Shown: positions 2,589 through 48,428 of the stretch, piece by piece
Numbering within the stretch: position 1 is the stretch's first letter
How the letters are laid out: each line of letters begins with the position of its first letter
NCBI RefSeq assembly: GCF_963515975.1
Contig: NZ_CAUPZM010000002.1
Span: forward strand, 40,853 to 104,852
DNA: 64,000 nucleotides
Reading direction: 5' to 3'
From: Campylobacter showae
Lineage (GTDB): Bacteria > Campylobacterota > Campylobacteria > Campylobacterales > Campylobacteraceae
Made by a program: the position numbers and the translations under genes
Notes under the pieces: generated by a model
The model's input: the letters and a program-made list of their open reading frames with translations, nothing else
Databases searched by the model: none
What the model was told of the DNA's origin: nothing

Positions 2589-2633
2589 AAACGGTACGCC
2601 GTAGTTTAAATTTAACCGCTCAAGGTACCGTTT
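2589..2633. repeat. Intergenic inverted repeat with AAATTT in the loop
   Basis: aaacggtac (2589-2597) / gtaccgttt (2625-2633) between valS and ddh. Confidence 0.55.
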
Positions 2634-2669
2634 GGATCTGCCAAGTCCTAACGCAAAAACCAAAAAATA

Positions 2670-5513
2670 TCAATCGACCGCTCCCAAATTCGCTAGCTCG
2701 CTATCTACCTTTTCTAGCTTTTGCGTCGCGCTAGCTAGCCCTTCGCGGTTGGCTTCGACCACGGCTTGCGGGGCTGAGGCTACGAATTTCTCGTTATTTA
2801 GCATGCTTGATAGCTTTGCTATCTCTTTTTCTAGTTTGGTTTTTTGCGACCGCAGTCGCATGATAACAGCACTCATATCCATGCCCTCAAGCGGTACGAA
2901 TACCTCTAAATTTTCGCTCACGTCGCGCGCGGCGTTTTCGATTTTGGCGTCGCAAAACTCGATCTGTTCGCATTTAGCTAGCAGCGAGACGTAGTTTGTC
3001 GCCTCGGTCAAATTTTCGTTTCCGTTTAGCTTGATAAAGGCTTTTGCGATCTTTGAGTTGCCTTGCTCGATGGTCGCCTTTGCGCGGCGGATCGCGACGA
3101 TGGCTTCGATCACCAGCTCAAAGGTCTTTTCTATCTTCAAATCGCGCTCATTTGCCTGCGGATACGCCTCTATCATGATAGAGCTCGCGCTTTCTAAATT
3201 TGAGCCGCTAAGCTCGTGGAAAAGGTATTCTGAGATAAACGGCATAAAAGGACTTAGTAGTCTCATAGCCTCTTTAAATATCGCTCCAAGCTCCCTTACG
3301 CTGCCTTTATCGGCTTTGCTAAGCTCGATGCCCCAGTCGCAAAACTCGTCCCATAAAAATTTATAAATAGCGTTTGCCGCGTCGTTAAAGCGGTAGGCGT
3401 CGATGTTCTCTCGCACTTCGCGCACGCACTCGTTAAAGCGGCTTAGCATGTATTTGCCAAGCTTTGTTTCGATTTTCGCGTCGCTTAAATTTGCAAATTT
3501 AGACTCGTTTAGCAGCAGGTATTTGCTCGCGTTGTAAAGCTTGTTCGTAAAATTTCTCACGAGCTTCATCTTTTCGTCGCTTAGCTTTATGTCGCGTCCC
3601 TGCACGGCAAGCAGTGCAAGCGTAAAGCGCAAGACGTCGGCGCTGTACTCATCGATGCTAACGAGCGGATCGATGACGTTGCCTAGGCTCTTGCTCATCT
3701 TTCTGCCTTGCTCGTCTTTAACCAAAGCGTGCAGGTAGATATCGTCAAACGGCAGCTTGCCTAGCGCGTTTTCGCCCTGAAACATCATCCTAGCCACCCA
3801 GAAAAACAAGATATCAAAGCCGGTGATTAGTAGATTGTTTGGGTAAAATTCGGTCAAATCGCCATCAAACCATTTCTCGTTTTTTAGCTCCTCGCCGTTG
3901 CCCCAGCCAAGCGTGCTAAACGGCCAAAGTCCCGAGCTAAACCAGGTATCAAGGACATCCGGGTCTTGATGGAAATTTACGCTTTTGCATTTTGGGCACT
4001 GCGTCGGTTCGCCTTCGTCCGCCCACTCGTGTCCGCACTTGCCGCAGTAAAATACCGGGATCTGATGTCCCCACCATAGCTGGCGCGAGATACACCAGTC
4101 GCGAAGCTCGCGCATCCAGGCGTTAAAGCTGTTTATCCAGTGAGCCGGGTAAAATTTAGCTAAGCCTTCGCCGACCTTTGCGATCGCGTCGTCCGCGATC
4201 TGTTTTTTGACGAACCACTGCTTTGAGATGTATGGCTCGACGACGTTTTTGCAGCGGTAACAGTAGCCGACTTGATTTTCGTAGTCTTCGATCTTCTCGA
4301 CGTTTCCGAGCTTTTCTAGCTCTGCGACGATGACGTCTCTAGCCTCAAGTCTTTCTAAGCCCTTAAACTGCGCGCACTGCTCGTTTAGGATGCCTTTTTC
4401 GTCAAAAACTGTGATAAACTCTAGATCATGCCTTTTGCCGACCTCGTAGTCGTTAGTGTCGTGCGCCGGGGTGACTTTCACAAGACCTGTTCCAAACTCC
4501 ATATCGACGTGCTCGTCGGCGATGATCTTTATCTCGCGACCGATTATCGGCAGGATTACTTTTTTGCCGATCAAATTTTTATAGCGTTCGTCGTTCGGGT
4601 TTACCATTACCGCGGTATCGCCGAAATATGTTTCAGGCCTTGTCGTTGCTACAACGATATACGGCAAATTCTCGCTTTGATATGCTTTGTTAGAGCGGAT
4701 TTCTCCTCGGTCACGCACGACCAGTGCGCTCCCGTCGTCAAAATCCACTCCGCCTCGCCTCTCTTCGCGATAATTCGCCTCGTCTTTTTGGTTTAAATTT
4801 TGCGCCTCGTTCGTGCCCCTCTTGCAACCCGCAAATTCACCGCACGATACTTCGGCTTGTTTGTTTAAATTTGATGTTAAATTTTGTTCGTCCGCAAGGT
4901 AGTATCTCAAATGATAAAGTTTGCCCTTGTTTTCTTTATGCTCGACCTCGATGTCGCTGAGCGCGCCGTCGTGCGTACACCAGTTTATCATGTAGTTTTC
5001 GCGCACGATGAGGCCTTTTTCGTAGAGATTTACGAAGGCTTTTTTGACCGCTTTTCTTAGCCCTTCATCCATCGTAAATCTTTGGCGCGACCATGCCGGA
5101 GAGATACCTAGTTTTCGCATCTGATGCACGATCATACCGCCGCTTTTTTCTTTCCATTCCCAGACTTTTTCTACAAATTTTTCGCGTCCGAGTTCTTCTT
5201 TTTTGACGCCTTGGGCTAGGAGCTGCTTTTCAACGACATTTTGCGTGGCGATACCGGCATGATCAAGGCCCGGCTGCCACAGCGTTTTGTAGCCGTCCAT
5301 TCTTTTGTAGCGCGTCATTATGTCTTGTAGCGTAAAGGTTAGCGCATGCCCGATGTGAAGCGAGCCCGTTACGTTTGGAGGCGGCATCATGATGCAAAAT
5401 TTACGGCCGTCTTTGCGGATATTTTTGTTCGCGTCTATCTCGAAATATCCGCGTTCTTCCCAAATTTTATAAAATTTATCTTCTATCTCTTTTGCGTCGT
5501 AAAATTCCGCCAT
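2670..5513 (-). CDS. valS: Valine--tRNA ligase, with a ~73-aa in-frame insertion
   Basis: PPPNVTGSLHIGH, ATTRPET, DWCISRQLWWGH, KMSKS, C-terminal coiled coil. Confidence 0.98.
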   Translation of the reverse strand: MAEFYDAKEIEDKFYKIWEERGYFEIDANKNIRKDGRKFCIMMPPPNVTGSLHIGHALTFTLQDIMTRYKRMDGYKTLWQPGLDHAGIATQNVVEKQLLAQGVKKEELGREKFVEKVWEWKEKSGGMIVHQMRKLGISPAWSRQRFTMDEGLRKAVKKAFVNLYEKGLIVRENYMINWCTHDGALSDIEVEHKENKGKLYHLRYYLADEQNLTSNLNKQAEVSCGEFAGCKRGTNEAQNLNQKDEANYREERRGGVDFDDGSALVVRDRGEIRSNKAYQSENLPYIVVATTRPETYFGDTAVMVNPNDERYKNLIGKKVILPIIGREIKIIADEHVDMEFGTGLVKVTPAHDTNDYEVGKRHDLEFITVFDEKGILNEQCAQFKGLERLEARDVIVAELEKLGNVEKIEDYENQVGYCYRCKNVVEPYISKQWFVKKQIADDAIAKVGEGLAKFYPAHWINSFNAWMRELRDWCISRQLWWGHQIPVFYCGKCGHEWADEGEPTQCPKCKSVNFHQDPDVLDTWFSSGLWPFSTLGWGNGEELKNEKWFDGDLTEFYPNNLLITGFDILFFWVARMMFQGENALGKLPFDDIYLHALVKDEQGRKMSKSLGNVIDPLVSIDEYSADVLRFTLALLAVQGRDIKLSDEKMKLVRNFTNKLYNASKYLLLNESKFANLSDAKIETKLGKYMLSRFNECVREVRENIDAYRFNDAANAIYKFLWDEFCDWGIELSKADKGSVRELGAIFKEAMRLLSPFMPFISEYLFHELSGSNLESASSIMIEAYPQANERDLKIEKTFELVIEAIVAIRRAKATIEQGNSKIAKAFIKLNGNENLTEATNYVSLLAKCEQIEFCDAKIENAARDVSENLEVFVPLEGMDMSAVIMRLRSQKTKLEKEIAKLSSMLNNEKFVASAPQAVVEANREGLASATQKLEKVDSELANLGAVD
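4662..4889 (-). repeat. In-frame AAATTT-containing insertion in valS
   Basis: 76 residues between YYLAD and YIVVATTRPET, where orthologues have about 3; the insert starts with tandem AAATTT units (NLTSNL). Confidence 0.75.
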
Positions 5514-5604
5514 ATTTTATCCTTAATAATTGTTTAAAAAATGTCGGATTTTACTACAAATTTGCTAATAGTATGTTTAAAATAGGTTGTTTTTAAGAAT
5601 AGGC

Positions 5605-5636
5605 AAAGAAAGCGAAGCGGCTAAAAACCGCTTCGC
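5605..5636 (-). terminator. Intrinsic terminator after alpha-2-macroglobulin gene
   Basis: gcgaagcgg (5612-5620) / ccgcttcgc (5628-5636) stem followed on the minus strand by TTTCTTT. Confidence 0.75.
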
Positions 5637-5642
5637 AAAGGA

Positions 5643-8600
5643 TTATTTGACGATAAATTCGTGCTGAGCTAGATCGTAGTCGCTCATGCTCTCGTCGTAC
5701 ATGTTTTCCGTGATGACCGCAGGCAGCATGCACTTACCGCTCATGACGACGCGAAGAGGCGTGTAGAGCACGTGCGCATCCTTGCTAGCGTCCAAGCTGT
5801 AAAAGCTCAAAACTCTGTCGTCCTCGATGTTTTGATGCTCGAGAGTTAAAGAGTTTTTCGTAGCTTCAGTTCTTACGTTAGGTACGATATTTTCGTTTAC
5901 CACCTCAAGGCAAGGGCTGATCGTTTCGTTTATCACGCCGTTTCTGATAAACTCATTCGTTTTAAGAGAAAGCTTCGAGTAGATGACGTCGTTTACCTTA
6001 AGCGCGTTGATATCGATCTCTTTGCCGTCTTTGCCGACGAAGGTTCTGTAGATATCAAGCCCTTTTTTGTCAAATTTATGATTTACGTCTAGCTTTTTGT
6101 AGCCTGACGCGCTAACGCCTAGATACACGGCTGCGCCGTTCTCAGGTACGATAGTGATCTCAGGCTTTTTAGGAGCGATGTTGATAGCTCCGCGGCCGTC
6201 GAAATTTAGATCGTGTCCGTCGGCGATAAGCTTAAATTTGTTCTCGCTTGAGACGTCTTTGATATAGGCTCTTAGCGCTCTTAGCGTAAATGCGCGCTCC
6301 TGCGTCGAATGTAGCTTATCGACGCGAGCGATCAGGTAGTCGGCTAGCTCATCGCTAAATGCGTTTTTCTCAAAGTGATTAGCGTGTAAAAGCAGCATAA
6401 AGGCCTTGTTTCTGATCTCTGAACCGAAGTTATCTGCTAGCTCTTTTTCGCGGTTATAGGTCGATTTATTTAGCTCTTTTAGCACTTTTTCGCTCTCTTT
6501 ATTTAATCCCTCGTTTTTGAGGATCGCCGCCATCAAGTAGCCCTCAAGCGCGCTGCCCTGGTATCTCTTTTGATCGTATAGAGCGTTTAGCTTTGATCTA
6601 TCGAGTTTCTTTTGCGTGCTTAGGACGTAGGCTGCGTAAAGAGCTTGGAAGTTGTCGTTGCTACCAAACGCCCTTAACCAGTCGATCGCTTTATTTTTTA
6701 CGTGGCTATCAAGCGCAAAGCCTGATTTTTCAAGCGTAAACAGCATATCGATAGAGTAGATAGAAGCAAAGTTGTTCGTATAGCCTAGCTGATTCCAGTA
6801 GCCGATGCTGCCGTCTGTTTTTTGCATATTGACGACGTCTTGTATGCCCGCTTCGACGAATCTTCTTCTATCGGCTTCTTTTGCTTTAGCTTCTTTAGAA
6901 TCATCTCCGCCAAGCACTAGGAAATTTAGCTCAAAAAGCTTACTTGAGCGCTGTTCGGCGCATCCGTAAGGGTAGTTGACGAGCTTATCGCTATTTGCGC
7001 TTAGTACGCCTTTTATAGAGCTTGAAGCGTCGATTCTGATGCGTTTAAACTCACTGTCAAGCTTAAATGTTTTTTCCACTGTAGCCTGGAAATTTTTAGC
7101 GTAGGTGCTAAGCGGATAGGCGTGGATGACGTCAAGCTTTTGCGAGTAGGTATAGCCGTTTTTACCGTCGTTTGCGGTGAAATTTATATATGATTTGCCA
7201 GTAGCGTTAGCGTCGATCGTGAAATTTAACTTCGCGTTTTCGTTAGGTTTTAGCTCGATACTATCGACGGCTAGCTGCGCGTTTAGGTTCGTATCTATAC
7301 TTAGAGCGACGGTTTTTGGCTCTTTAGTCGTATTTATCACTCTTAGTGTGTAGTTTACCTGGTCGCCCTGGATCAAATACGCCGTTTGCGTCGGTTTTAG
7401 GATGATATCGTCTTTTACCTTGACGGCATTTACGCTAAAGCCTAGTTTATCGCCGATGACGCTAAGCGCGGCCAAATTTATCTCGGAGTTAAAGTCGCTC
7501 GGAACCTCTACGTCAAAGTTTGCTACGCCGTCCGTGCCCGCTTTTGCGGTTTGCATTTTGATGTATGTTTTGACGTTTTTCTTATCGACGGGGCTAGCAA
7601 ATTTTGCCATTCTCATCTCCATGAGAGCAGCCGCCGCGTCGCCGCCGAAGCTTAGTACTTTGCCGTCTTTTTTAAATCCGCTCAAATTTGAGTAGATGTC
7701 GTAGTCAAGCACGCCGTCGTTTAAAATTTTGTCAAAGAAGTCAAGAGGGCTTTTTAGCTTTTGATTTGTTATCTGAAGCACGCCTTCATCGACCGCAAAT
7801 AGCGTAACTTCCGCATTTGGCTCGGTTTTTACGCTAGTTTTAAATTTGGAGTTTGACTTCACGACTTTGGGCGCTTCGATGCTGACGTTTGTCGCTCGGT
7901 ATGATTTATCCGCTTTTGCATAGACTTTATCGTAGGTTCTAAACGGCATAGTGTCGTTATCGGCTACGCGCATGATAGATGCCGTGACGTAAAGTCCCTC
8001 AAAGTCGAAATCAAGGTCAAATTTAGCGTTTGCGACGTTGTTTTGGATGTTTACGACTTTATACTTTTTGACGTTTTCGGACTCTACCGTGATGATACCG
8101 ATACCGCTTTTTAGCACGGAGCTAACGTCTACGTTTAGCGAGTCGCCTTTTTTATAGACTTTTTGGTTTAGCTTGATTTTGGCTTTAGCTAGCTCTTTTG
8201 TCGGTTGCAAAGTGCCGCCGTAGTCCCAGCCGCTAACATAGATATCTAAATTTGACGAGTGGCCGCTTAGGATATCGGAAACTACGACTACGTAGTCGCC
8301 GCTTTGTTTGAAGTCATAAACGAACTCGCTACCGCTAAGAGTATCGCTAAATACTTTCTCGTAGCGTTTGCTCCATTTTAGATAGCCTTCTTTGTTATAG
8401 TTGTAGTCCCAAATGGCTTTTTTGATCTCTACGGCTTTTTGTCTATCTTTTAGCTCCTCGTCCTTGAGCGGATCGACGCTGACGAAATTTAGCGTTAGTT
8501 TGGAGTTTGCGTCGATGTAGGTGTCGTTTGCTCTGACGCCGACCATCACGTCAAAAGGATATACGCTAAAGTCGTTGCTAGCGCTCACGTTTTTGCCGTC

Positions 8601-10808
8601 GTCGTTAATGGTAAATACCGCGGTGCCTTTTAAGATGCTCGCGATTTTGCCTTTGTTCTGCAGCTTAAACGCAGTTGCGCCTTTACCTTCGCCGTCTAGA
8701 GTTACGGGCTTAGTAAACTGATCTAGGCCGTTTGCGGCGTATTCGCCGTTGCTAAATTTATACTCTTTAAATTTATCGTTTTTGTAATCTTGCTGATATA
8801 AATTTAACGCCACGTCGCCCTCTAAATTAGCTGCCGCGCCGCCGAAAAGGTAGTTGCTTTGCAGTTTTACGTCTATTAGATCATCTAGAGCGTAAATTTG
8901 CTTATCTAGCTTGACCTCGTTTTTGATGCGTTGCGGAGTGAATGACTCGACCGAGAAGTCGTAGCTATCGATGATTTTATTTGCAAAGATCACTTCAAAT
9001 TTAAAGGTTCCCGTTAGTCCCGAGTTTACCGGCTCGTCGAAATTTATCACGCCAAGCTCGGTCGTGTTTATGCTTTTATCTAGGATTACTTTGTTTTGCG
9101 GATCTCTGATTTTTAGCTTAACGGGCATGTTTGAGAGGCTCTTAAACAGCGCGTTTTTGATGATGATTTCGCCTTTTATGTTTTCCTGCGGGCGGATGAT
9201 GTTGCTAGCAAAATGCAAATATGCGTTATAAATTTCGCTTCTATCTTTGGCGTCTAAATTCGACTCCTCGTTTAAGCGTTTATTTTGCGATAGAGCGATG
9301 AAGCTTTGCTCCTTGCCCAGCGTTAAAACTGCGCTTGAGACGTCTTTGCCGATGTCTTTTTTGTTAAATTTAAACACGCCTTCGTCGTTTGTAATGCCGC
9401 TTGCGATGAGATTATTTTTTACGGAGTAGATTTTGACGTCCGCGTTTGCGACCACTTCGTTTTTACTCAAGCGGTTGGCAAATAAAAATACCTCGTCTTT
9501 TGAAACTTTCATGCTTAGGCCGATATCTGTTAGATAGACCGGTTTTTGGACGCTTTTGTCTTTGTCGTAGTAGATCGTGACCAGATAAACTCCGTCGCCG
9601 CCCTCGGCAAAGTCAAGTTTGATCTTGCTTTTTTGCATTTCGTTTTGAGCGCCACCGATCTCGTAGTTTTTGCTAGCGACCTCTTCGGCATAGTTATCTA
9701 AAGGAGTCTCGGTGAAATTTAAAAAGTATCTTAAATTTTGCTCTTTTAGCTTCTCGACGACGACTTTAGCGGTGTTTGTGTTTACGCTTTTTACGCCGAT
9801 CTCGCCTAGGCTAGACATATACGTGCCGCTATCGGTAAACTCTAAAAACGGCTTTAGATCGCCGAACTCGACGTTAAAGATAGAGTTTTCTCGAAGCATC
9901 GAGTAGTCGTCGCCAAAGCCCTTGTAGAAAGTGACTTTGTATGTTGTCTGCGGTTTGAAGTCGTTGCTGGTGATGTCGATATAGTAGTAGTAATACTCGC
10001 CGTCAGCGTCTTGATGGCTGGTGTACTCCATATCGCTCACTTCAAAGCTATTTACGCCCTCGACCTTAATGAATTTTTTAATATTATCCAAATCCACCCA
10101 ATCTTTAAGATAGAGTCTAGCCGCTAGTTTGCCGTTATCTAAGCTAATGCCCTCGACCTCGTTTAAAAACATAGTCTTGGCTTTTGGCTTATCGACGAAA
10201 TTTTCATCAGGGTTTGAGACTTTTTGCACGACTTCAAAGTTGTCGGCTAAATTTACACCCGAAGCGTTTTTGAGATTTTTGGAGACCGCAAATACCAAAT
10301 TGTCGCCGCTTTCAAGTAGCTTTATCTGAAAGCTTCTAGGCGTTTTGGCTACGATTTTATATTTGATATTTTGCTTGGCTAAATTTTGCTTGTCGTAAAT
10401 TTTAAAATTTGCGGCAAACTCATCCTCGCTAACATCATCGTTAAATACCGCTAAAAAGGTATCCCCGGAGTATTCGATCATATTTGATAGTACGAAGTCC
10501 CCGCCGTAAAATTTGGCCTTGCTCTCGCCTTTTTTGCACGAGTAGCTTACGCCTTTTGCTAGAGGCTTTTTAGGGTAAAATAAAATCTGGCTTGATCCGT
10601 ATTCAAAGGCTCCGGTTACCTCTGGAGAGCACTCGATTATCTTTTTGTGCGTAACTTTGCCTATGAGCGACTGTTCGTTTTGAGCGTATTTGACGCCAAG
10701 ACTCACCGAGCCGTCGTCTAATGCCCTGCTTGAACCGTCAAGCGTAAAGGCGCTTAAATGTGATGCCAAAAGGCAACTTAGGCTTAAGCCGATTAGCTTA
10801 AAACGCAT
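5643..10808 (-). CDS. Bacterial alpha-2-macroglobulin family protein (YfhM-like)
   Basis: 1721 aa, N-terminal signal peptide, thioester motif YPYGCAEQ, LFAVDEGVLQIT, bait-region FGGD, EDDRV; adjacent to pbpC. Confidence 0.95.
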   Translation of the reverse strand: MRFKLIGLSLSCLLASHLSAFTLDGSSRALDDGSVSLGVKYAQNEQSLIGKVTHKKIIECSPEVTGAFEYGSSQILFYPKKPLAKGVSYSCKKGESKAKFYGGDFVLSNMIEYSGDTFLAVFNDDVSEDEFAANFKIYDKQNLAKQNIKYKIVAKTPRSFQIKLLESGDNLVFAVSKNLKNASGVNLADNFEVVQKVSNPDENFVDKPKAKTMFLNEVEGISLDNGKLAARLYLKDWVDLDNIKKFIKVEGVNSFEVSDMEYTSHQDADGEYYYYYIDITSNDFKPQTTYKVTFYKGFGDDYSMLRENSIFNVEFGDLKPFLEFTDSGTYMSSLGEIGVKSVNTNTAKVVVEKLKEQNLRYFLNFTETPLDNYAEEVASKNYEIGGAQNEMQKSKIKLDFAEGGDGVYLVTIYYDKDKSVQKPVYLTDIGLSMKVSKDEVFLFANRLSKNEVVANADVKIYSVKNNLIASGITNDEGVFKFNKKDIGKDVSSAVLTLGKEQSFIALSQNKRLNEESNLDAKDRSEIYNAYLHFASNIIRPQENIKGEIIIKNALFKSLSNMPVKLKIRDPQNKVILDKSINTTELGVINFDEPVNSGLTGTFKFEVIFANKIIDSYDFSVESFTPQRIKNEVKLDKQIYALDDLIDVKLQSNYLFGGAAANLEGDVALNLYQQDYKNDKFKEYKFSNGEYAANGLDQFTKPVTLDGEGKGATAFKLQNKGKIASILKGTAVFTINDDGKNVSASNDFSVYPFDVMVGVRANDTYIDANSKLTLNFVSVDPLKDEELKDRQKAVEIKKAIWDYNYNKEGYLKWSKRYEKVFSDTLSGSEFVYDFKQSGDYVVVVSDILSGHSSNLDIYVSGWDYGGTLQPTKELAKAKIKLNQKVYKKGDSLNVDVSSVLKSGIGIITVESENVKKYKVVNIQNNVANAKFDLDFDFEGLYVTASIMRVADNDTMPFRTYDKVYAKADKSYRATNVSIEAPKVVKSNSKFKTSVKTEPNAEVTLFAVDEGVLQITNQKLKSPLDFFDKILNDGVLDYDIYSNLSGFKKDGKVLSFGGDAAAALMEMRMAKFASPVDKKNVKTYIKMQTAKAGTDGVANFDVEVPSDFNSEINLAALSVIGDKLGFSVNAVKVKDDIILKPTQTAYLIQGDQVNYTLRVINTTKEPKTVALSIDTNLNAQLAVDSIELKPNENAKLNFTIDANATGKSYINFTANDGKNGYTYSQKLDVIHAYPLSTYAKNFQATVEKTFKLDSEFKRIRIDASSSIKGVLSANSDKLVNYPYGCAEQRSSKLFELNFLVLGGDDSKEAKAKEADRRRFVEAGIQDVVNMQKTDGSIGYWNQLGYTNNFASIYSIDMLFTLEKSGFALDSHVKNKAIDWLRAFGSNDNFQALYAAYVLSTQKKLDRSKLNALYDQKRYQGSALEGYLMAAILKNEGLNKESEKVLKELNKSTYNREKELADNFGSEIRNKAFMLLLHANHFEKNAFSDELADYLIARVDKLHSTQERAFTLRALRAYIKDVSSENKFKLIADGHDLNFDGRGAINIAPKKPEITIVPENGAAVYLGVSASGYKKLDVNHKFDKKGLDIYRTFVGKDGKEIDINALKVNDVIYSKLSLKTNEFIRNGVINETISPCLEVVNENIVPNVRTEATKNSLTLEHQNIEDDRVLSFYSLDASKDAHVLYTPLRVVMSGKCMLPAVITENMYDESMSDYDLAQHEFIVK

Positions 10809-12976: not shown

Positions 12977-13076
12977 TTCGCGATTATATCGAATTTTACG
13001 CATAAAATCTCGAAAGATTAAATTTATGATAATTGATATATAATTTCAAATATTAATTTAAGCAAAGGAGAAAACC

Positions 13077-14591: not shown

Positions 14592-14602
14592 CGGTTGCGC
14601 CT

Positions 14603-14628
14603 TAAATTTTACTCAAATTTGCCGATAT
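14603..14628 (+). promoter_or_regulatory. Putative sigma28 (FliA) promoter
   Basis: TAAA (14603-14606)-N14-GCCGATAT (14621-14628), 24 nt upstream of ATG 14653. Confidence 0.6.
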
Positions 14629-38312: not shown

Positions 38313-38325
38313 AAAAAGGAAAAAA

Positions 38326-39213: not shown

Positions 39214-39216
39214 CTG

Positions 39217-39990: not shown

Positions 39991-40016
39991 GTTTAGTTAT
40001 TTATGCTTATCGCTTC

Positions 40017-40076
40017 AAATTTACCGCCGTATCCGTTAAATCGTCGCCAAATTTACGGATCGGCGGCGGTAAATTT
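40017..40076. repeat. AAATTT-bounded hairpin after NlpC/P60 gene
   Basis: aaatttaccgccg...atccgt / acggat...cggcggtaaattt. Confidence 0.75.
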
Positions 40077-40293
40077 AACTTCTAAATTTACTCTACGCCA
40101 AATTGCGTAGTAGTCGTTAAATTTGAACCAAAAATCCTAAATATCAAGAACGGCATATCCGCTAGGGCGTTTCAAATTTGCTCGTTTTCATACAAAAAAT
40201 CTCCAAATTTTATTTTACTATCCGATTTAAATACCAAATTTAACTTAAATGCTATAAAATTATCGTTACGAGTTAAATTTGATAAGGAAAAAT

Positions 40294-40605
40294 ATGCTGA
40301 TAAAAACTGACGCCCCCGTCTGGGTCGATATCTCGCGCTGCAAAGCGTGCGATATCTGCGTGAGCCGCTGTCCTGCGGGCGTGCTGGCGATGGCCGTAGA
40401 GCCGCGCGCTGTGCTAGGTAAAACGATCGAAGTGGTGCATCCTGAGGCCTGTATCGGGTGCAGAGAGTGCGAGCTACACTGCCCCGATTTTGCGATTTAC
40501 GTAGCGGAAAAGGGATTTAAATTCGCCAAACTAACCGCCCAAAGTAAAGAGCGCGCGACCGCCGTAAAAGAGAATAAATTTGAAAAATTAGAGGCGGAGC
40601 AATGA
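40294..40605 (+). CDS. oorD: 2-oxoglutarate:acceptor oxidoreductase ferredoxin subunit
   Basis: Two CxxCxxCxxxCP motifs; ATG 40294 after AAGGAA. Confidence 0.93.
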   Translation: MLIKTDAPVWVDISRCKACDICVSRCPAGVLAMAVEPRAVLGKTIEVVHPEACIGCRECELHCPDFAIYVAEKGFKFAKLTAQSKERATAVKENKFEKLEAEQ

Positions 40606-41753
40606 GCGAATTTTTAAATAATAACGGCGGCAAAAGAGAGGTCATCGCTAGCGGCAACGAGCTAGTCGCGCTTGCGGCGGTGGAGTGCGGGTGTAACTTT
40701 TTCGGCGGTTATCCGATCACGCCAAGCAGCGAGATCGCGCACGAACTAAGCGTGCTACTTCCAAAGCACGGCGGTAAATTTATCCAGATGGAGGACGAGA
40801 TCGCAGGCATCTCGGTGGCGCTTGGAGCCTCGATGAGCGGGGCAAAGGCGATGACTGCAAGCTCGGGTCCCGGTATCTCGCTAAAAGCCGAGCAGATCGG
40901 GCTTGGCTTTATTGCGGAGGTGCCGCTAGTGATCGTAAACGTCATGCGCGGCGGCCCTAGTACGGGGCTACCTACCCGCGTGGCGCAGGGCGATCTCTTG
41001 CAGGCGAAAAACCCGACTCACGGCGACGTAAACAGCATCGTTATCGCGCCCTCAAGCCTAGAGGAGTGCTATACGCAGACCGTTCGCGCGTTTAATCTCG
41101 CCGAGAGGTTCATGACGCCCGTGTTTTTGCTACTAGACGAAACGATCGGACACATGCACGCAAAAGCCGTGCTGCCGCAGATCGGCGAGCTAGAGATCTA
41201 CTCGCGCAAGCAGTTTGGCGGCGATCCCGCGGACTACCGCCCATATAGGGCCGCAGCCAACGAGCCTGCCGTACTAAATAAATTTTTCGGCGGTTACCGC
41301 TATCACGTTACGGGCCTGCATCACGGCGAGACGGGTTTTCCTACCGAGGACGGCGCGGTCGTGGACTACAACATCAAGCGCCTTTTTAACAAAATAAACG
41401 CACATGCGCATGAGTTTGAGCTTTGCGAGGAGTTTATGCTAGATGACGCGGAGATTTGCATTATCGCGTTTGGCTCCGTGGCTCGCGCGGCAAAGGAAGC
41501 GGTGCTAAATTTACGCGAAAAAGGTGTGAAAGTAGGGCTTTTTAAGCCTATCACGCTATTTCCGACGCCAAGTGCGAAACTACGCGAGATCTCGGCTAAA
41601 TTTAGCAAAATTTTGATCTGCGAGTTAAATTTGGGCCAGTATACGGGAGAGGTAATCAAAGCTACGCTAAGAGACGACTTTAAGACGCTACTAAAAGCCA
41701 ACGGCCGTCCGATCAGCCCGCAAGAAATCGCGCAAAAAATAGGAGAATTTTAA
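40602..41753 (+). CDS. oorA: 2-oxoglutarate:acceptor oxidoreductase alpha subunit
   Basis: GYPITPSSE, QMEDEI, ASSGPG, RGGPSTGLPT. Confidence 0.95.
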   Translation: MSEFLNNNGGKREVIASGNELVALAAVECGCNFFGGYPITPSSEIAHELSVLLPKHGGKFIQMEDEIAGISVALGASMSGAKAMTASSGPGISLKAEQIGLGFIAEVPLVIVNVMRGGPSTGLPTRVAQGDLLQAKNPTHGDVNSIVIAPSSLEECYTQTVRAFNLAERFMTPVFLLLDETIGHMHAKAVLPQIGELEIYSRKQFGGDPADYRPYRAAANEPAVLNKFFGGYRYHVTGLHHGETGFPTEDGAVVDYNIKRLFNKINAHAHEFELCEEFMLDDAEICIIAFGSVARAAKEAVLNLREKGVKVGLFKPITLFPTPSAKLREISAKFSKILICELNLGQYTGEVIKATLRDDFKTLLKANGRPISPQEIAQKIGEF

Positions 41754-42598
41754 TGGCATTTAACTACGACGACTACCTACGCACGGACAAAACGCCGACT
41801 CTGTGGTGCTGGGGCTGCGGCGACGGCGTGATACTAAAGGCGCTAATCCGCGCAATCCATAAGCTAGGCTGGGACATGAACGATGTGTGCGTGGTCTCTG
41901 GTATCGGCTGCTCGGGACGCTTTAGCTCCTACATCAACTGCAACACCGTCCACACGACGCACGGGCGCGCGATAGCCTATGCTACGGGTATCAAGCTAGC
42001 AAACCCGAGTAAACACGTCATCGTGGTAACCGGCGACGGCGACGGGCTAGCTATAGGCGGCAATCACACGATCCACGGATGCCGCAGAAATATAAATTTA
42101 AACCACGTTTTGATAAATAACTTCATCTACGGGCTAACGAACTCCCAAACCAGTCCGACCACGCCGACCGGGTTTTGGACGGTGACGGCGCAGTACGGTA
42201 ACGTCGATCCAAATTTTGACGCGTGCAAGCTCGCAACCGCCGCAGGAGCGACCTTTGTAGCGCGCAGCAGCGTGATAGAGCCCGCAAAGCTGGAAAAGAT
42301 ATTTGCCGAGGGCTTCGAGCATGATGGATACAGTTTTTTTGACGTATTTTCAAACTGCCACATAAATCTAGGCCGCAAAAACAAGATGGGGCAGGCCACG
42401 CAGATGCTAGAGTGGATAGACGGTCGCACGGTGAGCAAGGCTAAATTTGACGCGATGAGCGAGGATGAGCGGGAGGGTAAATTTCCGCTCGGAGTGCTGC
42501 ACAAAGACGAGTCTCGCATGGAGTACACGAAGGCCTACGACATGGTGATAAAAGCCGCTAGAGACGGCGAAAAAATCGACTTTGGAGCGCTAAAATGA
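41753..42598 (+). CDS. oorB: 2-oxoglutarate:acceptor oxidoreductase beta subunit
   Basis: WCWGCG, SGIGCS, TPP motif GDGD...NN. Confidence 0.95.
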   Translation: MAFNYDDYLRTDKTPTLWCWGCGDGVILKALIRAIHKLGWDMNDVCVVSGIGCSGRFSSYINCNTVHTTHGRAIAYATGIKLANPSKHVIVVTGDGDGLAIGGNHTIHGCRRNINLNHVLINNFIYGLTNSQTSPTTPTGFWTVTAQYGNVDPNFDACKLATAAGATFVARSSVIEPAKLEKIFAEGFEHDGYSFFDVFSNCHINLGRKNKMGQATQMLEWIDGRTVSKAKFDAMSEDEREGKFPLGVLHKDESRMEYTKAYDMVIKAARDGEKIDFGALK

Positions 42599-43155
42599 AA
42601 AGGCAGTTGAGATTCGTCGGAGTGGGCGGCCAGGGCGTGATACTAGCGGGCGAAATTTTAGCCGCGGCCAAGATCGAGGAGGGCGGATACGGCGTCAAGG
42701 CCTCGACCTACACCTCGCAGGTGCGCGGCGGACCGACGAAGGTCGATATCATTTTGAGCGAGCGCGAGATATTTTACCCCTACGCAAACGAAGGCGAGAT
42801 CGAGTTTATGCTCGCTACCGCGCAGGTTAGCTTCGAGCAGTTTAAAGACGGCGTAAGAGAGGGCGGCATCATCGTCGTGGAGCCAAATTTAGTACGCGCT
42901 AGCGATGAAGATAAAAAACGGTGGAAAATCTACGAAATACCCATCATCTCCATCGCTAAAGACGAAGTGGGCAACGTCATAACCCAAAGCGTCGTCGCGC
43001 TCGCAGTCGCCGTGCAGATGAGCGGCTGCCTAGATACTGAGCTGGTTAAACGCGTAATGCTCTCAAAAGTACCTAAAAAAGTCTACGCTGAAAACGAAAA
43101 AGCTTACGAACTGGGGCTCAAATACGCCGAAATTTGCATAGAAAACGGCAAATAA
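42595..43155 (+). CDS. oorC: 2-oxoglutarate:acceptor oxidoreductase gamma subunit
   Basis: GVGGQG, YTSQVRGG. Confidence 0.95.
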   Translation: MKRQLRFVGVGGQGVILAGEILAAAKIEEGGYGVKASTYTSQVRGGPTKVDIILSEREIFYPYANEGEIEFMLATAQVSFEQFKDGVREGGIIVVEPNLVRASDEDKKRWKIYEIPIISIAKDEVGNVITQSVVALAVAVQMSGCLDTELVKRVMLSKVPKKVYAENEKAYELGLKYAEICIENGK

Positions 43156-43237
43156 AAGCGTGATTTGAAATAAGATAGATTAAGTATCATTTCGTTATAA
43201 TTCAGGTATTAATTTATTTGATTTTAAGGAGAACGAA

Positions 43238-43717
43238 ATGAGCGTTGGTATTTTTTACACGACGACAAAGGGGCACACAAAGAGCGCATGCGAGTATCTA
43301 GCGGGCAAAATAGGAGCTCAGCTAATAGATGTCAAGAGCGCAGGGGCGCAGGATTTTTCTAAATTTGACGTCATCATCGTAGCGGCGCCTAGCTACGGCG
43401 ACGGCGAGTTGCAGTCTGACTGGGCGGAGAAACTGCCGCTTTTAAAAGCCGGTAGTAAAGGCAAAAAAGCTGCCATCGTAGCCATCGGCAATCAAGCCAA
43501 CCACCCGCAAACGCTTTTTAGTGGCGCGGTGGATTTTCTGCCGTATCTAAAAGATGCGCAAATTTTCGGCGCTAGCGACGTGGACGGATATAAATTTAAC
43601 CACTCCGCGTTTTTAGTAAACGGCAAATTTATCGGTCTCGCGCTTGACGTTAAGGGTGATGAAAACTACGCAAAACGCATCGACAAATGGGTTGAGCAAA
43701 ACAAGTCTAATTTTTAA
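43238..43717 (+). CDS. Flavodoxin (long-chain type, divergent)
   Basis: GIFYTTTKGHT, PSYGDGELQSDW, GKFIGLALD, RIDKWV; TATAAT at 43196-43201 and AAGGAG RBS. Confidence 0.88.
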   Translation: MSVGIFYTTTKGHTKSACEYLAGKIGAQLIDVKSAGAQDFSKFDVIIVAAPSYGDGELQSDWAEKLPLLKAGSKGKKAAIVAIGNQANHPQTLFSGAVDFLPYLKDAQIFGASDVDGYKFNHSAFLVNGKFIGLALDVKGDENYAKRIDKWVEQNKSNF

Positions 43718-43731
43718 TTTTCTACTTTCCG

Positions 43732-43768
43732 CCGCTTCGCTCGTTAAATTTGAGCGAGGCGGTTTTTT
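43732..43768 (+). terminator. Intrinsic terminator after flavodoxin
   Basis: ccgcttcgctc / gagcgaggcgg stem, loop gttaaattt, then T6. Confidence 0.85.
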
Positions 43769-43902
43769 AATTGCCAAATTAACGAGTTCACGTCAAATTT
43801 AGATAGCTATTTTTTAGTAAAATTTGCTTACGAAATCTCAAAATTTAAAAACTCAGAAAATCGGCATTTATTATCCGAATTCCTGAGCCTAAAATACAAA
43901 TT

Positions 43903-44676
43903 TTATTTTCCAAAAAGCTTCTTTATGGCGCCGAAAAAGCCTCCTGAGCCTTCGTTTTTATCGCTTTCGCTTTTCTTTTTATCCAGCTTCATCGCTTTGC
44001 TTAGTTGCTGAGCTGCCGTATCGGCGTAGATAAACGCGCCTTCCGGGTCGCAATTAAAAAGATTTGAGTAGCACTCAGAATCATTTAAATCAATCGGGTT
44101 GGGTATAATCACGTCTGTCGCCTCAAGCAGCCCGTAGCCGTTTTCTACGCTAAATTTAACTGCGCTCAAAAACGCAGGCAAATTTTGCGCGTAAAAGTCA
44201 TCTACTTTTTGTTTTATATTTTCATCGGCATTGTAGTCCTGCCAAAATTTGGCCAAATTTGTTACGTTTATAAATGCGCCAGACGAGTAGTTTCCGTCAA
44301 ATTCGCCCGTAAATTTAGCTTTTATTTCAGGCGGTATAACGCCGCTTATATCGCTTAGATACTGCTTAAATTCGCCGTGCTCCTGCGCCAAAAAGCCAAA
44401 CGCCGTGCCGCGCGTGTAGAAGTATTTTCTAAAAAATCCTTGCACGGTAGCAAGTATGTAGCCGTGTCCCGTCGAAAAGCTCTCGTCATCTTTGGTTTCA
44501 AGCGCGGTTTTTAGGGTATCGATGTATTTTTGCGCGTAAAAATCCTCCATGCCGTACTCTTTTGCAAGCCTTTGTACGACCGACCAGTCGCCCTCTCTCG
44601 CGCTTTTTAATGCGTCAAAATACCACTGCTTTATCTCGTTTTCGTTGATCGGATGATAACTCACATCGTAGCCCAT
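43903..44676 (-). CDS. Hypothetical protein (acidic, soluble)
   Basis: 257-aa ORF with AAGGAA RBS; no family recognised. Confidence 0.8.
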   Translation of the reverse strand: MGYDVSYHPINENEIKQWYFDALKSAREGDWSVVQRLAKEYGMEDFYAQKYIDTLKTALETKDDESFSTGHGYILATVQGFFRKYFYTRGTAFGFLAQEHGEFKQYLSDISGVIPPEIKAKFTGEFDGNYSSGAFINVTNLAKFWQDYNADENIKQKVDDFYAQNLPAFLSAVKFSVENGYGLLEATDVIIPNPIDLNDSECYSNLFNCDPEGAFIYADTAAQQLSKAMKLDKKKSESDKNEGSGGFFGAIKKLFGK

Positions 44677-44729
44677 TTTGATTCCTTTTTAGGTAGATTT
44701 TTTCTAAATTTACAAAGGATTCGGCCGAT

Positions 44730-45365
44730 TTACGCGTATAAAATCGACCCTAGACGAATCATATTTGAGCCGCATTTTATCGCTAGTTCAAAGTCGCCGC
44801 TCATGCCCATCGAGCAGATTTTTGCGCCGCAAGGTTGCAGATTTTCGTAAATTTTACGCGTAGTCTCAAAGCTCTTTTGCACGACCTTTTCGTCATCTAC
44901 GTGCGCGCCGATACTCATCACGCCGACGGGTTTTAAAAATTTACACTCCTGCGCGATTTGTAAAAATGCATCCTGGGCGGCCTCGGGCGAGATGCCTTGT
45001 TTCGTGTCTTCGCGCGCGGAGTTTATTTGCAATAGGCAAGGCAGCTCATAGTCAAGCCTCTTATCCACCGCAAGCGCGGCTTCTACGCTCTCGCAGCTTT
45101 GCCAAAGAGCGGGTTTGAGCGCTAGCAGGTGGTTTATTTTGTTGCTTTGAAGTCGCCCGATGAAGTGCCACTCTATCGGCAAATTTGACAGAATTTCGCT
45201 CTTATTTTTGAGCTCTTGCACGCGGTTTTCGCCAAAGCTCGTTTGCCCCTGCTCAAAAAGCTGCAAAACCTCTTTGGTCGTTACGTTTTTGCTTACGGCG
45301 ATTAGCTTCACTGCTTCGCCCGTGCGTGCGTTTTCGATGCGTTCTAAAATTTGCGCGAGCTTCAT
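44730..45365 (-). CDS. yggS: YggS family PLP-binding protein
   Basis: LIAVSK, FGENRVQE, WHFIGRLQSNK, SMGMSGD, IRLGS. Confidence 0.95.
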   Translation of the reverse strand: MKLAQILERIENARTGEAVKLIAVSKNVTTKEVLQLFEQGQTSFGENRVQELKNKSEILSNLPIEWHFIGRLQSNKINHLLALKPALWQSCESVEAALAVDKRLDYELPCLLQINSAREDTKQGISPEAAQDAFLQIAQECKFLKPVGVMSIGAHVDDEKVVQKSFETTRKIYENLQPCGAKICSMGMSGDFELAIKCGSNMIRLGSILYA

Positions 45366-46474
45366 TGTCCCGCTCCACTTAGGCGCATCACGTCGTTAAA
45401 GGTCGCAAACGCCATCAGGCAGAGCAAAAATGCCCAGCCGCAGTAGGTGAGGCCGATATAGACTTTTTCGTTCATCTCGCGGCGGAAAACGAGCTCATAA
45501 AGGTTGAAAAATATATGACCGCCGTCAAGCGCGGGGATCGGGAGTAGGTTTAGCACGCCTAAATTTACGGAGATCAGCGCAGCGATGATGAGTAGGGTCG
45601 AGAGGCCGATGCCTGCGGCTTTTGAGGTGATGTCGGTGATCTGGATGATGCCGCCCATCTCTTTTAGCGGCACGACGCCCACTATCAGCTTTTCAAGTCC
45701 CGTAAATATGAGCTTTGAGGCGTTTACGGTCTCAACGAGCGCAAATTTGAGCGAGCTAAAGCCGGTGTTTCGTATCGTGACGGCCTCGCCTGAGGGCGAA
45801 ATGCCGATGAGCGGTTTTTCTATCTTTTCGCCAAATATTGTTACGCTCTGCCCGATTTTAGGCGTCAAATTTATCGTTTTTATTTCGCCTGCGCGCTCGA
45901 GCATGATCGCCGTGGAGGTTAAATTTACGTTTTTGCTTATCTCGTCCCATTCGCTGATTTTGATGCCGTTTATGTTTAAAATTTTATCGCCTTTTTGCAG
46001 TCCGGCACTTGCCGCGGCGGAGTTTTCAAGTACTTTGCCCACAGTCGGCGCAAGCCTTTCAACCCCGATGTGCCCGAGCGCGATAAAGATAAAAAACGCC
46101 AAAGCGAAGTTAAAAAACGGCCCGGCAAAAAGGATAAAAATACGTCCAAGAGGGCTAAGCCTCGTGTAGCTGTCGGCATCCTCGTTTTTTAGCCCCAGTT
46201 TGGAGTCCTCTTGTCCTTTTAGGCTCACGTAGCCGCCAAGCGGTATCGCACCGATGGCGTACTCGGTGTCGCCGATGGTTTTTGAGTAGACGCTTTGCCC
46301 AAAGCCCACGCTAAATTTTAACACGCCGACTTTTAGCATGCGAGCGGCAAGAAAGTGGCCAAGCTCGTGGAAAAATATAAGAAAGCTAATCACCAAAACC
46401 GTGATCAAAAAGTGCCAAGAGTACGCATAAATGCCGACGGCTAGCATCGCCGCCACAAAGATAATGCTTTTCAA
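45362..46474 (-). CDS. rseP: RIP metalloprotease RseP
   Basis: HELGH, PLGGYV, AGP, PDZ domain, NLLPIPALDGG. Confidence 0.95.
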   Translation of the reverse strand: MKSIIFVAAMLAVGIYAYSWHFLITVLVISFLIFFHELGHFLAARMLKVGVLKFSVGFGQSVYSKTIGDTEYAIGAIPLGGYVSLKGQEDSKLGLKNEDADSYTRLSPLGRIFILFAGPFFNFALAFFIFIALGHIGVERLAPTVGKVLENSAAASAGLQKGDKILNINGIKISEWDEISKNVNLTSTAIMLERAGEIKTINLTPKIGQSVTIFGEKIEKPLIGISPSGEAVTIRNTGFSSLKFALVETVNASKLIFTGLEKLIVGVVPLKEMGGIIQITDITSKAAGIGLSTLLIIAALISVNLGVLNLLPIPALDGGHIFFNLYELVFRREMNEKVYIGLTYCGWAFLLCLMAFATFNDVMRLSGAGQ

Positions 46475-46495
46475 AATTTACCTTTAAATTTGATT

Positions 46496-47512
46496 TTACC
46501 GCTCGAGTTTATCGCTGAGCAAAACGGCGATAAATTTCGTGCTCGGGTTTGCGTCAAGCGCGATCTTTAGGCTCATGGTAAGCGGTACGGCTAAAAACAT
46601 ACCGCCGATGCCGAACAAAAATCCCCAAAAAAGTAGGCTCAAAAGCACCACAAGCGTGCTGATACCAAGGCCTTTGCCAAGAAATTTCGGCTCGATAAAG
46701 TTGCCGATAATGATATTTACGGCTAAATATAGAGCCGCAGTCCAAGCGCAAGAGGCTGCGTCGTTTAGCAAAAGCGCCACCAAAAGCGCCGGGACGGCCG
46801 CGATAATAGAGCCGATCGTCGGGATAAAATTTAGCACGAAAGCTAAAATCCCCCAAAGCGGCGCGTAAGGCACGCCGATGAAATTTAACCCGATAAATAT
46901 AAAAACGCCCGTCGCAAACGATGCTGCGGACTTGATCGCGAGATAGCGCTTGAGATTTGATATAAACGTATCTACGATCTGGTTCGTTTGCGGATTTTTA
47001 CTCGCAAAATACTCGACTTTTTGAGAAAATACCTGCACCTCAAAAAGCATAAAAGTAACGAGCAAAAACACAAAAAAGCTCTTTGAAACGAGCTCGGTGC
47101 CGCTCCTTAAAAATCCGCCTAGCACGGCAAAAATTTTATTTATATCAAAGTCTGCGGGTGCGGCGACGCTCTCGGGATCGATTAGACCGCGGCTCGCTAA
47201 CATCTGGTGGTAATGATCGGCGAGGGCTTTAAATTTACTTTGAAGCTCGGGCATGTAGCTAACTAGCCCGTTTATCGTCTTTATCACGGTGTTTGCGATA
47301 AATCCCAGCGACAAAAACACGACCGCCGTAACGAGCGCAAAGGCTAAAACGCGCGGAAATTTGAGCTTTTCGAGCGCATTTATCGCAGGCGTCGCCACGA
47401 TAGCGATAAAAACCGCCATCAAAAACGGTAGCACGACGACGCTAGCGGCCTTTAGTCCGGCTGCTACCACGACGAAGCTTGCTAGATAGATTATGGCGTT
47501 TCCTGTTCTCAA
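46496..47512 (-). CDS. AI-2E family transporter
   Basis: Multi-TM; NFIPTIGS, GNFIEPK, GMFLAVPLT. Confidence 0.9.
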   Translation of the reverse strand: MRTGNAIIYLASFVVVAAGLKAASVVVLPFLMAVFIAIVATPAINALEKLKFPRVLAFALVTAVVFLSLGFIANTVIKTINGLVSYMPELQSKFKALADHYHQMLASRGLIDPESVAAPADFDINKIFAVLGGFLRSGTELVSKSFFVFLLVTFMLFEVQVFSQKVEYFASKNPQTNQIVDTFISNLKRYLAIKSAASFATGVFIFIGLNFIGVPYAPLWGILAFVLNFIPTIGSIIAAVPALLVALLLNDAASCAWTAALYLAVNIIIGNFIEPKFLGKGLGISTLVVLLSLLFWGFLFGIGGMFLAVPLTMSLKIALDANPSTKFIAVLLSDKLER

Positions 47513-47514
47513 AT

Positions 47515-48069
47515 TTATGCCTTTTTGGCTTGATTTTTAACGTGCTTTACATAAGCATTTACGTACTCAAAGCCCGAATACAGCGTCAGTGCGACGCTAA
47601 GCCAGAGCAAAAACTCGCCAAAAGGCCACTGCATGGTTAAAAAGCCGATTGCGACCATCTGGCAAACGGTTTTAACCTTGCCCGCCATCGACGCGGCGAC
47701 CTCTACGCCTTCGCCCGCCATCACGACGCGAAATCCCGTGATAAAAAACTCGCGAACTAGTATGAGATACACCGCCCACGGGCTCGCGCGGTCTATCATC
47801 ATGAGTCCTAAAAACGCGCCAAGAGTCAGCATCTTATCGGCAAGCGGGTCGATCACGGCTCCAAGTTTGGTCTTTTGATCCCATGCGCGCGCGATAAATC
47901 CGTCGAAAAAGTCCGTAACGCTAGCGATCACAAATACAAGCGCGGCAAAGTAGTTCATCCAGCTAACGTGCACGCCTGAAAAGGAATTTACGCTAAGTAG
48001 CAGCCAAAACATTAGAGGCGCTAGAAATACGCGCAGGAAGGCTAGGGCGTTTGGTAAATTTAGGCTCAT
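47515..48069 (-). CDS. pgsA: CDP-diacylglycerol--glycerol-3-phosphate 3-phosphatidyltransferase
   Basis: NLPN, TDFFDGFIAR, GAVIDPLADK. Confidence 0.96.
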   Translation of the reverse strand: MSLNLPNALAFLRVFLAPLMFWLLLSVNSFSGVHVSWMNYFAALVFVIASVTDFFDGFIARAWDQKTKLGAVIDPLADKMLTLGAFLGLMMIDRASPWAVYLILVREFFITGFRVVMAGEGVEVAASMAGKVKTVCQMVAIGFLTMQWPFGEFLLWLSVALTLYSGFEYVNAYVKHVKNQAKKA

Positions 48070-48428
48070 TTATTTGTTCTTTCTTTTTGATTTCGGAGTT
48101 TAAAATTTGACGGCTCGGCGCTAAAGCCTGCATAAAATTTGCCGACTCGCATTTTGTTTGTTTTTGTCGGTCGCGGATTTGCGCTTTGCTTAAATTTGCT
48201 CGTCGCTTCGTCAAATTTGAGCGATTTTGGATTTAAATTTAACGGCAAAAAGCATTTCGACTCTTTCAAATTTAGATCAAATTTGAAAGAATCGTCCGCG
48301 CCGCAAAATTTGCTTTTAAATTTTAAATTTTCAAATTTAGCCTGCAAACGCATTAAATTTATACTGCCGAATTTGCCCGAAATGCGAACAATCGGCAAAG
48401 GAGCGCAGGCTAAATTTGCTTTTTTCAT
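48066..48428 (-). other. AAATTT-repeat-derived 120-aa ORF (possible de novo gene or repeat array)
   Basis: 13 AAATTT copies and several inverted repeats; ATGA overlaps with both neighbours. Confidence 0.5.

Follow-up and report, generated by a model that had tools for sequence, protein, structure and literature searches.

AAATTT in genes and gaps of an oral Campylobacter: a hyper-abundant palindrome and a hairpin family with exchanged cores

In a 64,000 nt stretch of a Campylobacter showae genome (the window, G000:C2:40853-104852), hairpins carrying the palindrome AAATTT recur in intergenic gaps, and AAATTT-rich blocks also lie within the valS, hydD and hypE genes. This raises the question whether these modules belong to one spreading repeat family, as an original prediction from the sequence supposed, or whether the word itself accumulates. 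The genome of G000 has a size of 2.10 Mb, a GC content of ~46% and is a draft in 46 contigs, in which we called 1,944 genes. The nearest named relatives of its ValS protein were from uncultured Campylobacter sp. (95-98%), followed by C. concisus. The clade labels used here, showae/rectus clade for the group of G000 and gracilis-like for L042-L050, were assigned from GC content and distance.

Abundance, conservation and phasing of AAATTT

The 450 AAATTT sites dispersed over the window (1..64000, no strand assigned) were a local sample of a genome-wide hyper-abundant palindrome with YAAATTTR as the preferred context. The genome contained 14,404 copies, one per 146 bp, which made AAATTT the highest-ranked hexamer, at 17.8-fold the zero-order and 4.6-fold the order-2 Markov expectation. 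It accounted for 69% of genomic AATT, and RAATTY for 87%. The density, based on our own gene calls, was 16.9 per kb in gaps and 5.2 per kb in genes. Within the coding sequences of 1,792 genes we counted 9,103 sites versus 2,652 (sd 27) after synonymous shuffling, an increase by a factor of 3.4. Enrichment was 1.5-, 9.9- and 10.1-fold in the three reading frames and 16-fold over zero-order in gaps. An enrichment beyond codon and AT bias, as predicted, was thus confirmed by synonymous shuffling and by the Markov models. The word was realized at 9,078 of the 12,803 places (71%) that the encoded protein permits, and peptide motifs permitting AAATTT were 1.68 times as frequent as after amino acid shuffling. 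Specific avoidance of GAATTC was rejected, since the 396 observed sites equaled the 399 predicted from independent end preferences.

To follow the maintenance of the sites, G005 (1.36 Mb aligned) and G004 (0.70 Mb aligned) were compared with G000, to which each shows 91% identity; the codon-level comparison comprised three genomes, with 49,845 codon columns from 509 genes. At 26 vs 210 expected, synonymous changes of AAATTT to a non-RAATTY sequence were 8 times rarer than matched changes. Changes to another RAATTY site (37 vs 72 expected) and from other RAATTY sites to non-RAATTY (20 vs 38 expected) were also reduced. The central bases of AAATTT were best protected (10 vs 108 expected changes), and Y-to-R changes in the flanks were rare (4 vs 15). 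In gaps, 59 of 950 AAATTT sites were lost, compared to 588 of 4,947 other A/T hexamers. Non-synonymous losses were below expectation (14 vs 32), and non-synonymous gains were 3.6 times commoner than expected (12 vs 3.3). This result showed that a DNA-level signal biases amino acid substitution and, together with the excess of permitting motifs, supported the idea that the word shapes protein sequence. AAATTT as a special indel breakpoint was rejected: only 3 of 63 and 1 of 37 indels involved it, no excess over other microhomologies, and breakpoints at AAATTT (3/9 vs 12/35 in the null) were at the generic microhomology level. The creation of AATT outside RAATTY was suppressed (38 vs 84), and such AATT was depleted genome-wide; neither is accounted for by any of the models considered here.

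Pairs of AAATTT sites, examined for spacings of 6-130 bp, showed peaks, within genes as well as gaps, at 11-12, 21-22, 33, 44, 55 and 66 bp. The period was 11.2 bp with an amplitude of 0.13 versus a background of 0.015, and the periodicity was also seen in G004, G005 and G022. Other A-tracts had an amplitude of 0.074 at the 11 bp periodicity, and AAATTC/GAATTT reached 0.18, in phase with AAATTT. Since other A-tracts are periodic as well, the phasing is not specific to AAATTT, which rides on a general A-tract periodicity. For C. curvus, persistent A-tract periodicity has been published (PMC3431218, available text).

On contigs C11 and C12, AAATTT made up only 20-43% of AATT in some windows, versus up to 87% elsewhere. 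One of these poor islands (G000:C11:4001-24000 and C12:20001-56000) was low in GC and one had many short phage-like open reading frames (ORFs); judged by GC content and ORF layout, they are presumably foreign DNA.

The hairpin family and the valS insert

The predicted in-frame blocks of valS, hydD and hypE were indeed present, as 72, 44 and 19 additional amino acids compared to relatives. The valS insert (4665..4880, minus strand) consists of an AAATTT leader with a partial hairpin, followed by a second leader with a full hairpin. It maps to residues ~204-202 of PDB 1gax, which we take to be the start of the editing (CP1) region. Used as a query, the insert matched 10 other loci, within a cluster of 88 regions. 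A profile built from 21 seeds found 64 hairpin copies in the genome and none in the reversed genome; none of the 64 was located in a called gene. Among the 52 copies with both neighbors, 30 opposed their co-directional neighbors. The valS copy itself (4661..4800, minus strand) is a degenerate member of this ~120 nt family with core type A. It was recognized by a subtype profile (E 1.6e-12; best reversed-window control E 0.064), folded with z -6.0 and fitted the family alignment.

The family has a fixed frame, GGCGAAGTAT ... AGACAAGCC, around a variable core of ~100 nt. Among 33 aligned copies, two-sided changes occurred in 22 of 27 pairs of a structure derived from the same alignment, and 92% of the pairing cells could pair, compared to 38-48% in slid controls. 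Covariation, proposed as a check for the modules in general, was strong for this family. The outer stem carries invariant bulges. The strict frame pattern matched 12-27 times in 7 genomes of the own clade and 0-3 times in 73 others. Upstream of the 120 nt hairpin there is often another hairpin module, rich in G, along with a leader rich in AAATTT; the composites thus formed reach ~630 nt (e.g. G000:C16:8042-8489 and C2:145432-146052).

Comparison of orthologous loci pointed to an exchange of cores. In 4 of 50 comparisons the relative lacked the core; in the remaining 46, the cores were at least 85% identical in 14 and less than 75% identical in 29, with a median identity of 94% in the downstream flanks. 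In 18 of the 29 differing cases the core of the relative matched a different locus of G000 at ≥85%. Swapped pairs kept 80-100% of the frame bases, versus down to ~40% of the adjacent core bases. Differential loss from tandem arrays is unlikely to have produced the swaps, because both genomes have a single copy at 24 of 27 loci.

The valS locus itself showed filled and empty alleles across strains, as anticipated. Empty alleles were present in G001, G002, G004, G005, G118, L033 and L034; G000 and L032 carried core A, and G012 and L049 carried core B. The insert of G012 shared its left part and right end with that of G000. Four gracilis-like loci had remnants of 10-12 residues, in which AAATTT is joined to AAATTC. 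Target-site duplications, together with terminal inverted repeats, mark MITEs; the pair of empty and filled alleles revealed no clean duplication, and AAATTT is present at the insertion point in the empty allele 'EQDKFIVV'. The empty alleles of the own clade (4860-4920 region; L033, L034, L264-L266) occurred in a concisus-matching and a gracilis-like-matching form; the existence of two forms suggests short interspecies recombination tracts at the valS loop. Also, an in-frame hairpin copy was found in a gracilis-like valS (L049:862-983), a lineage with few family copies, which suggests transfer of a filled allele between clades.

Searches for related elements gave no match to the families covered. 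Rfam had no match in the window at the gathering score and none at E ≤ 1 in two G005 loci with 8 copies. The RPE model TIGR01045 gave a best E of 0.36, below cut-off, and TIGR03774 gave none; the valS insert had no match to RPE models at E ≤ 1, a search that was also the only one to cover RPE3-5 and WPE. A Y1 (HUH) transposase was absent from all 5 genomes searched. The RPE of Rickettsia are palindromes of 100-150 nt that lie in frame in proteins, with filled and empty alleles and without a linked transposase (PMC3733652, as far as its text was available). The valS insert is likewise a palindrome, kept in frame in a housekeeping enzyme, and has filled as well as empty alleles. Unlike RPE, the family lacks a match to the RPE1/RPE2 models, nearly all of its copies are intergenic, and its cores are exchanged at fixed loci. 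The predicted RPE-like insertion in frame thus held for the valS palindrome. Like REP/BIME/REPIN-RAYT and Neisseria dRS3-RS elements, the family forms mosaics in intergenic DNA, composites in which variable parts are enclosed by a conserved frame. It differs from REP/RAYT by the missing Y1 transposase and by a longer single hairpin with covarying stems. We concluded that the hairpin family works like RPE but belongs neither to RPE nor to REP/RAYT by the tests run here. It offers an observable case of RPE-like change of an insert inside a protein, with valS alleles that are empty, carry either of two cores or retain remnants. No description of the 120 nt family was found in the literature searched, in which few subscription papers were covered.

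A methyltransferase, known systems and competing explanations

G000 has a single D12-class methyltransferase gene (G000:C16:13982-15073). Orthologs were present in 103 of 111 genomes of the family, in 6 of 10 genera, and were not found in any of 16 other families (E ≤ 1e-30). The C. jejuni ortholog (one genome) has 57% identity, and we take it to be the RAATTY enzyme of this species, hence the name CtsM-like. The G000 methyltransferase is a putative orphan enzyme, a partner nuclease having been looked for only in two ORFs of L031. We compared enrichment and presence of the methyltransferase in a hand-picked set of 62 genomes. AAATTT/TTTAAA was dropped as a measure: it was confounded in high-GC genomes, and therefore matched pairs were used, with AAATTC/AAATTG chosen as a pair with the same A-tract. 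This ratio exceeded 1.4 in all 40 carriers of the methyltransferase (median 2.5) and in 4 of 22 genomes without a match (median 1.0). For AAATTT/AAATTA, G000 had the highest value of all 62 genomes, 23. Codon-aware AAATTT ratios in loci of ~20 kb were 3.0-3.9 for concisus and gracilis-like genomes, 1.7 for C. jejuni and 0.6-1.1 in eight other Campylobacterales loci. The competence gene comEC (PF03772), the sole competence component searched, was present above cut-off, and MutL had no match in any of 5 genomes searched.

The predicted tie to methylation and DNA uptake appears plausible for RAATTY methylation, as the bias tracks the methyltransferase and a ctsM-like gene is present; the route by uptake is one we infer. 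A conserved orphan CtsM-like adenine methyltransferase would have the predicted specificity for RAATTY, with AAATTT as the favored version of this site. A reader of the methylated site may act in DNA uptake or recombination, so that site-carrying alleles would be favored and site-losing alleles purged, probably via transformation. Permissive DNA (gaps, surface loops, filler ORFs) would then become saturated with AAATTT. Because the word is self-complementary, it would be reused as hairpin arms, and this would produce the appearance of one family.

For C. jejuni, the available text of the sources states that uptake is limited to methylated DNA (PMC8468864) and that RAATTY occurs every 60 bp (10.1101/2024.09.10.611283); for C. 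fetus, a conserved enzyme correlates with RAATTY methylation and the motif is low in prophage (PMC13436318, available part). The oral clade and C. jejuni share the degenerate site, an orthologous methyltransferase (57%) and a high frequency of RAATTY. Compared with C. jejuni, the oral clade has a much stronger bias, concentrated on AAATTT (AAATTT/AAATTA of 23 in G000 vs 2.1-3.3 in nine g18 genomes). CtsM-type uptake on a methylated site is known for C. jejuni only; the oral clade shows the methyltransferase gene, comEC and the sequence bias. Neisseria DUS and Pasteurellaceae USS resemble AAATTT in that they build up in permissive regions, influence codon and peptide choice, serve as terminator arms and are rarer in foreign islands, but they are 9-12 bases long, non-palindromic, unmethylated and occur about once per kb. 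Beauchamp (2017) may reportedly already have noted over-representation of RAATTY across species. The main text of showae/rectus genome papers mentioned neither the AAATTT motif nor a hairpin repeat, and the literature searched, with few subscription papers covered, did not describe AAATTT as hyper-abundant in oral Campylobacters.

The closest parallel is the cyanobacterial HIP1 (GCGATCGC), also a hyper-abundant palindrome found in all frames and in gaps and conserved site by site. HIP1 has ties to an orphan methyltransferase and a link to transformation (PMC5861425; PMC4390886; 10.1101/2024.09.10.611283, each in its available part). Unlike HIP1, which has periods of 10-90 kb, AAATTT is a six-base A-tract with one site per 146 bp and 11.2 bp phasing, and Campylobacter represents a different phylum with a different enzyme and no MutL found (5 genomes). 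The available text of PMC4390886 does not mention Campylobacter. We concluded that the AAATTT abundance is an extreme form of the HIP1/uptake-sequence kind on a known methylation system. The high density of such sequences is an old open question, for which AAATTT provides a second HIP-like case, one where a candidate enzyme is known and relatives are genetically tractable. The gradient of AAATTT/AAATTA among carriers, from 0.6 to 23, allows models of drive, architecture and repair to be separated, and the g22 carriers without AAATTT excess form a natural contrast group for finding a reader protein.

To a HIP1/uptake-sequence-like drive on a putatively methylated site we give about an even chance of being correct. 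Several observations weigh against it. Synonymous gains (16 vs 12.5 and 20 vs 13.6 expected) were not significant, with the polarity of changes set by the majority of three genomes in an unrooted comparison, and the control word TTTAAA was also partly conserved (19 vs 36). The co-occurrence of bias and methyltransferase reflects one evolutionary origin, because the genomes compared are kin and not independent. The g22 carriers G060, G069, G076 and G082 had AAATTT/AAATTA ratios of 0.6-1.2 and no AAATTT excess, despite comEC being found in both g22 genomes searched; because of these carriers, the CtsM-like methyltransferase is insufficient alone. G138 was strongly enriched with only a distant methyltransferase match, possibly due to an assembly gap. 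Furthermore, one site per 146 bp seems far denser than uptake discrimination needs, and uptake does not predict the 11.2 bp phasing. That spacing, present in genes and gaps, would fit nucleoid architecture, the main rival, with selection for AAATTT as an A-tract in helical phase or as a binding lattice for a (possibly methyl-sensitive) bending or packing protein and transformation being secondary. The C. curvus periodicity (PMC3431218) points in the same direction, and a role in chromosome structure was argued for HIP1 (PMC5861425, available text). The periodicity of other A-tracts is opposed to a word-specific role, however, and pure curvature leaves unexplained both the 6 to 1 ratio of AAATTC to AAATTG and the bias following the methyltransferase, so that we regard architecture as a rather unlikely main cause. 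The 8-fold reduction of losses with nearly neutral synonymous gains is what a mutation or repair bias would produce, if methylated sites were cold spots or locally repaired and accumulated without selection; such a methylation-directed repair ratchet (Elhai-type) was proposed for HIP1 (PMC4390886, available text). With MutL lacking a match in all 5 genomes, non-synonymous gains above expectation and the creation of non-RAATTY AATT also suppressed, this bias is improbable as the sole explanation. Uptake drive, nucleoid structure and repair bias are not mutually exclusive.

A single mobile repeat family that spreads AAATTT modules into gaps and genes is in agreement with the hairpin family being studded with AAATTT, expanded in the same clade and inserted in valS, with the possible fragment in hydD and with gaps that tend to be longer in G000 than in G022: among 150 adjacent pairs, 29 were longer in G000 and 8 in G022. 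However, of the 14,404 sites only 395 (2.7%) lie in the hairpin family, and the concisus-like G022 is AAATTT-dense yet has few hairpin copies. In a genome BLAST of 13 regions, the valS insert alone had a match at E ≤ 1e-6 and none of 9 intergenic gaps did. Together with the conservation in ordinary genes, this led us to reject one family for all modules; as a source of the AAATTT abundance it is largely refuted and very improbable. Within the hairpin family, core exchange is most simply explained by ectopic gene conversion between dispersed copies, using the leader and frame that they share; natural transformation probably feeds the process. The swap boundaries, which are not sharp outside the frame, weigh against this explanation. 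Since a copy lies in frame in valS, such exchange would rewrite a loop of an essential enzyme. A dedicated enzyme is possible: cores could be cassettes moved by a site-specific recombinase or HUH nuclease reading the conserved outer stem, in the manner of integron attC or REP/RAYT. Frame bases kept much better than core bases, the invariant bulges, a right-hand homology of only ~10 nt and the occurrence of tandem copies would agree with cassettes. Divergence that often penetrates deep into the leader and runs on for a few bases beyond the frame does not, and no Y1 transposase was found in the 5 genomes by a search that did not cover tyrosine recombinases or reverse transcriptases. Given the family, we consider cassette movement doubtful. 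It is less likely still that oral Campylobacters combine a methylation-read code that rewrites the proteome and seeds segments and ORFs with a dedicated enzyme swapping hairpin cores, including the valyl-tRNA synthetase loop.

Locus-specific gaps, inserts and the orphan reading frame

Eight gaps had been listed as containing AAATTT hairpins. Five of them (2589, 14502, 26965, 40017 and 43732) folded better than shuffles that preserve the AAATTT tokens (z -3.2 to -6.3), the gap at 30972 and both halves of 31964-32590 folded weakly (z -1.7 to -2.7), and the gap at 15047 showed no fold beyond such shuffles (z -0.4). The best-folding regions were 40000..40140 (no strand assigned, z -6.3), a locus-specific hairpin with AAATTT arms conserved in G004 and G005, and 26960..27085 (plus strand, z -5.6), locus-specific hairpins with AAATTT arms and without a genome family. 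Locus-specific hairpins follow fumC (14502..14612, plus strand, z -4.2) and valS (2560..2670, minus strand, z -3.2), and a terminator-like hairpin lies between convergent genes (43720..43860, plus strand, z -3.3). Neighboring intergenic AAATTT pairs extended to inverted repeats with at least 8 extra pairs in 0.67% of cases versus 0.02% at random. The arm GGGCTAAATTTG and its complement were present in hydD (19061/19041) and in a gap (26986/27016), as described. This 12 nt arm occurs 46 times and represents AAATTT plus a common flank, which ranks 32nd among upstream 5-mers. The listed gaps, the hypE insert and the ORF 48066-48428 are thus locus-specific DNA saturated with AAATTT and not one repeat family. 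Between valS and the diaminopimelate dehydrogenase gene (2550-2670), many relatives have a membrane-type ORF of ~47 aa that is absent from G000 and near-identical across two clades (L032, L035, L036, L042-L050).

The clade-specific hydD insert of 44 codons (19041..19194, plus strand) contains 7-9 AAATTT per genome. It was present in 5 genomes of the own clade and absent from 17 other genus members with a match. Variable columns amounted to 3 of 54 within the motif versus 47 of 122 elsewhere. Positions 19119-19175 may be a decayed fragment of the hairpin family (E 5e-5). The clade-specific hypE insert of 19 codons (29567..29623, plus strand) has two AAATTT. A comparison of 185 ortholog pairs with G022, of whose 1.84 Mb 400 kb were covered, revealed 11 internal segments extra to G000, with 18.6 AAATTT per kb, and 6 extra to G022, with 9.8 per kb; a TPR-like repeat and a His-rich stretch account for two of the G000 segments.

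The orphan ORF (48066..48428, minus strand) lies between the enoyl-ACP reductase gene and pgsA, with ATGA overlaps to both. It was correctly described as rich in AAATTT (14 sites) and is open in 5 of 6 close genomes, but it is not a member of a repeat family. It encodes 120 aa in G000, 121 in G001, 109 in G004 and G005 and 291 in G012; it is frameshifted in G002, and G022 has a 36 nt gap instead. At E ≤ 0.001 and lengths of 66-210 aa, the search returned 226 protein clusters, of which the best 120 were 63-92% identical and had no Pfam domains; the five named ones among them were Campylobacter hypothetical proteins. Constraint at the protein level was not seen (12, 11 and 12 changes by codon position), and the best-kept residues were those encoded by AAATTT (0.96 vs 0.81). 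General selection for open frames in AAATTT-rich gaps was not evident either (25 in sense and 21 in antisense among 238), and therefore the ORF is a local case. In our view it is a young filler ORF whose frame is maintained for translational coupling; a function of the protein is possible. In the hypE-hypA gap (30481-30630), a frame of 54 codons starting within the hypE stop region is open in G004 and G005; the two genes overlap by 1 nt in G022.

Large ORFs at 5643-13003 and 32590-35139 encode 1721, ~700 and 849 aa, the last without an NCBIfam match. The region 15388-30971 harbors an ordinary Ni/Fe hydrogenase and maturation cluster (hydB, hydC, hydD, hypF, hypB, hypD, hypE, hypA). Outside the window, the repeat unit of CRISPR-like arrays (G000:C15:51440-53118) itself carries AAATTT.

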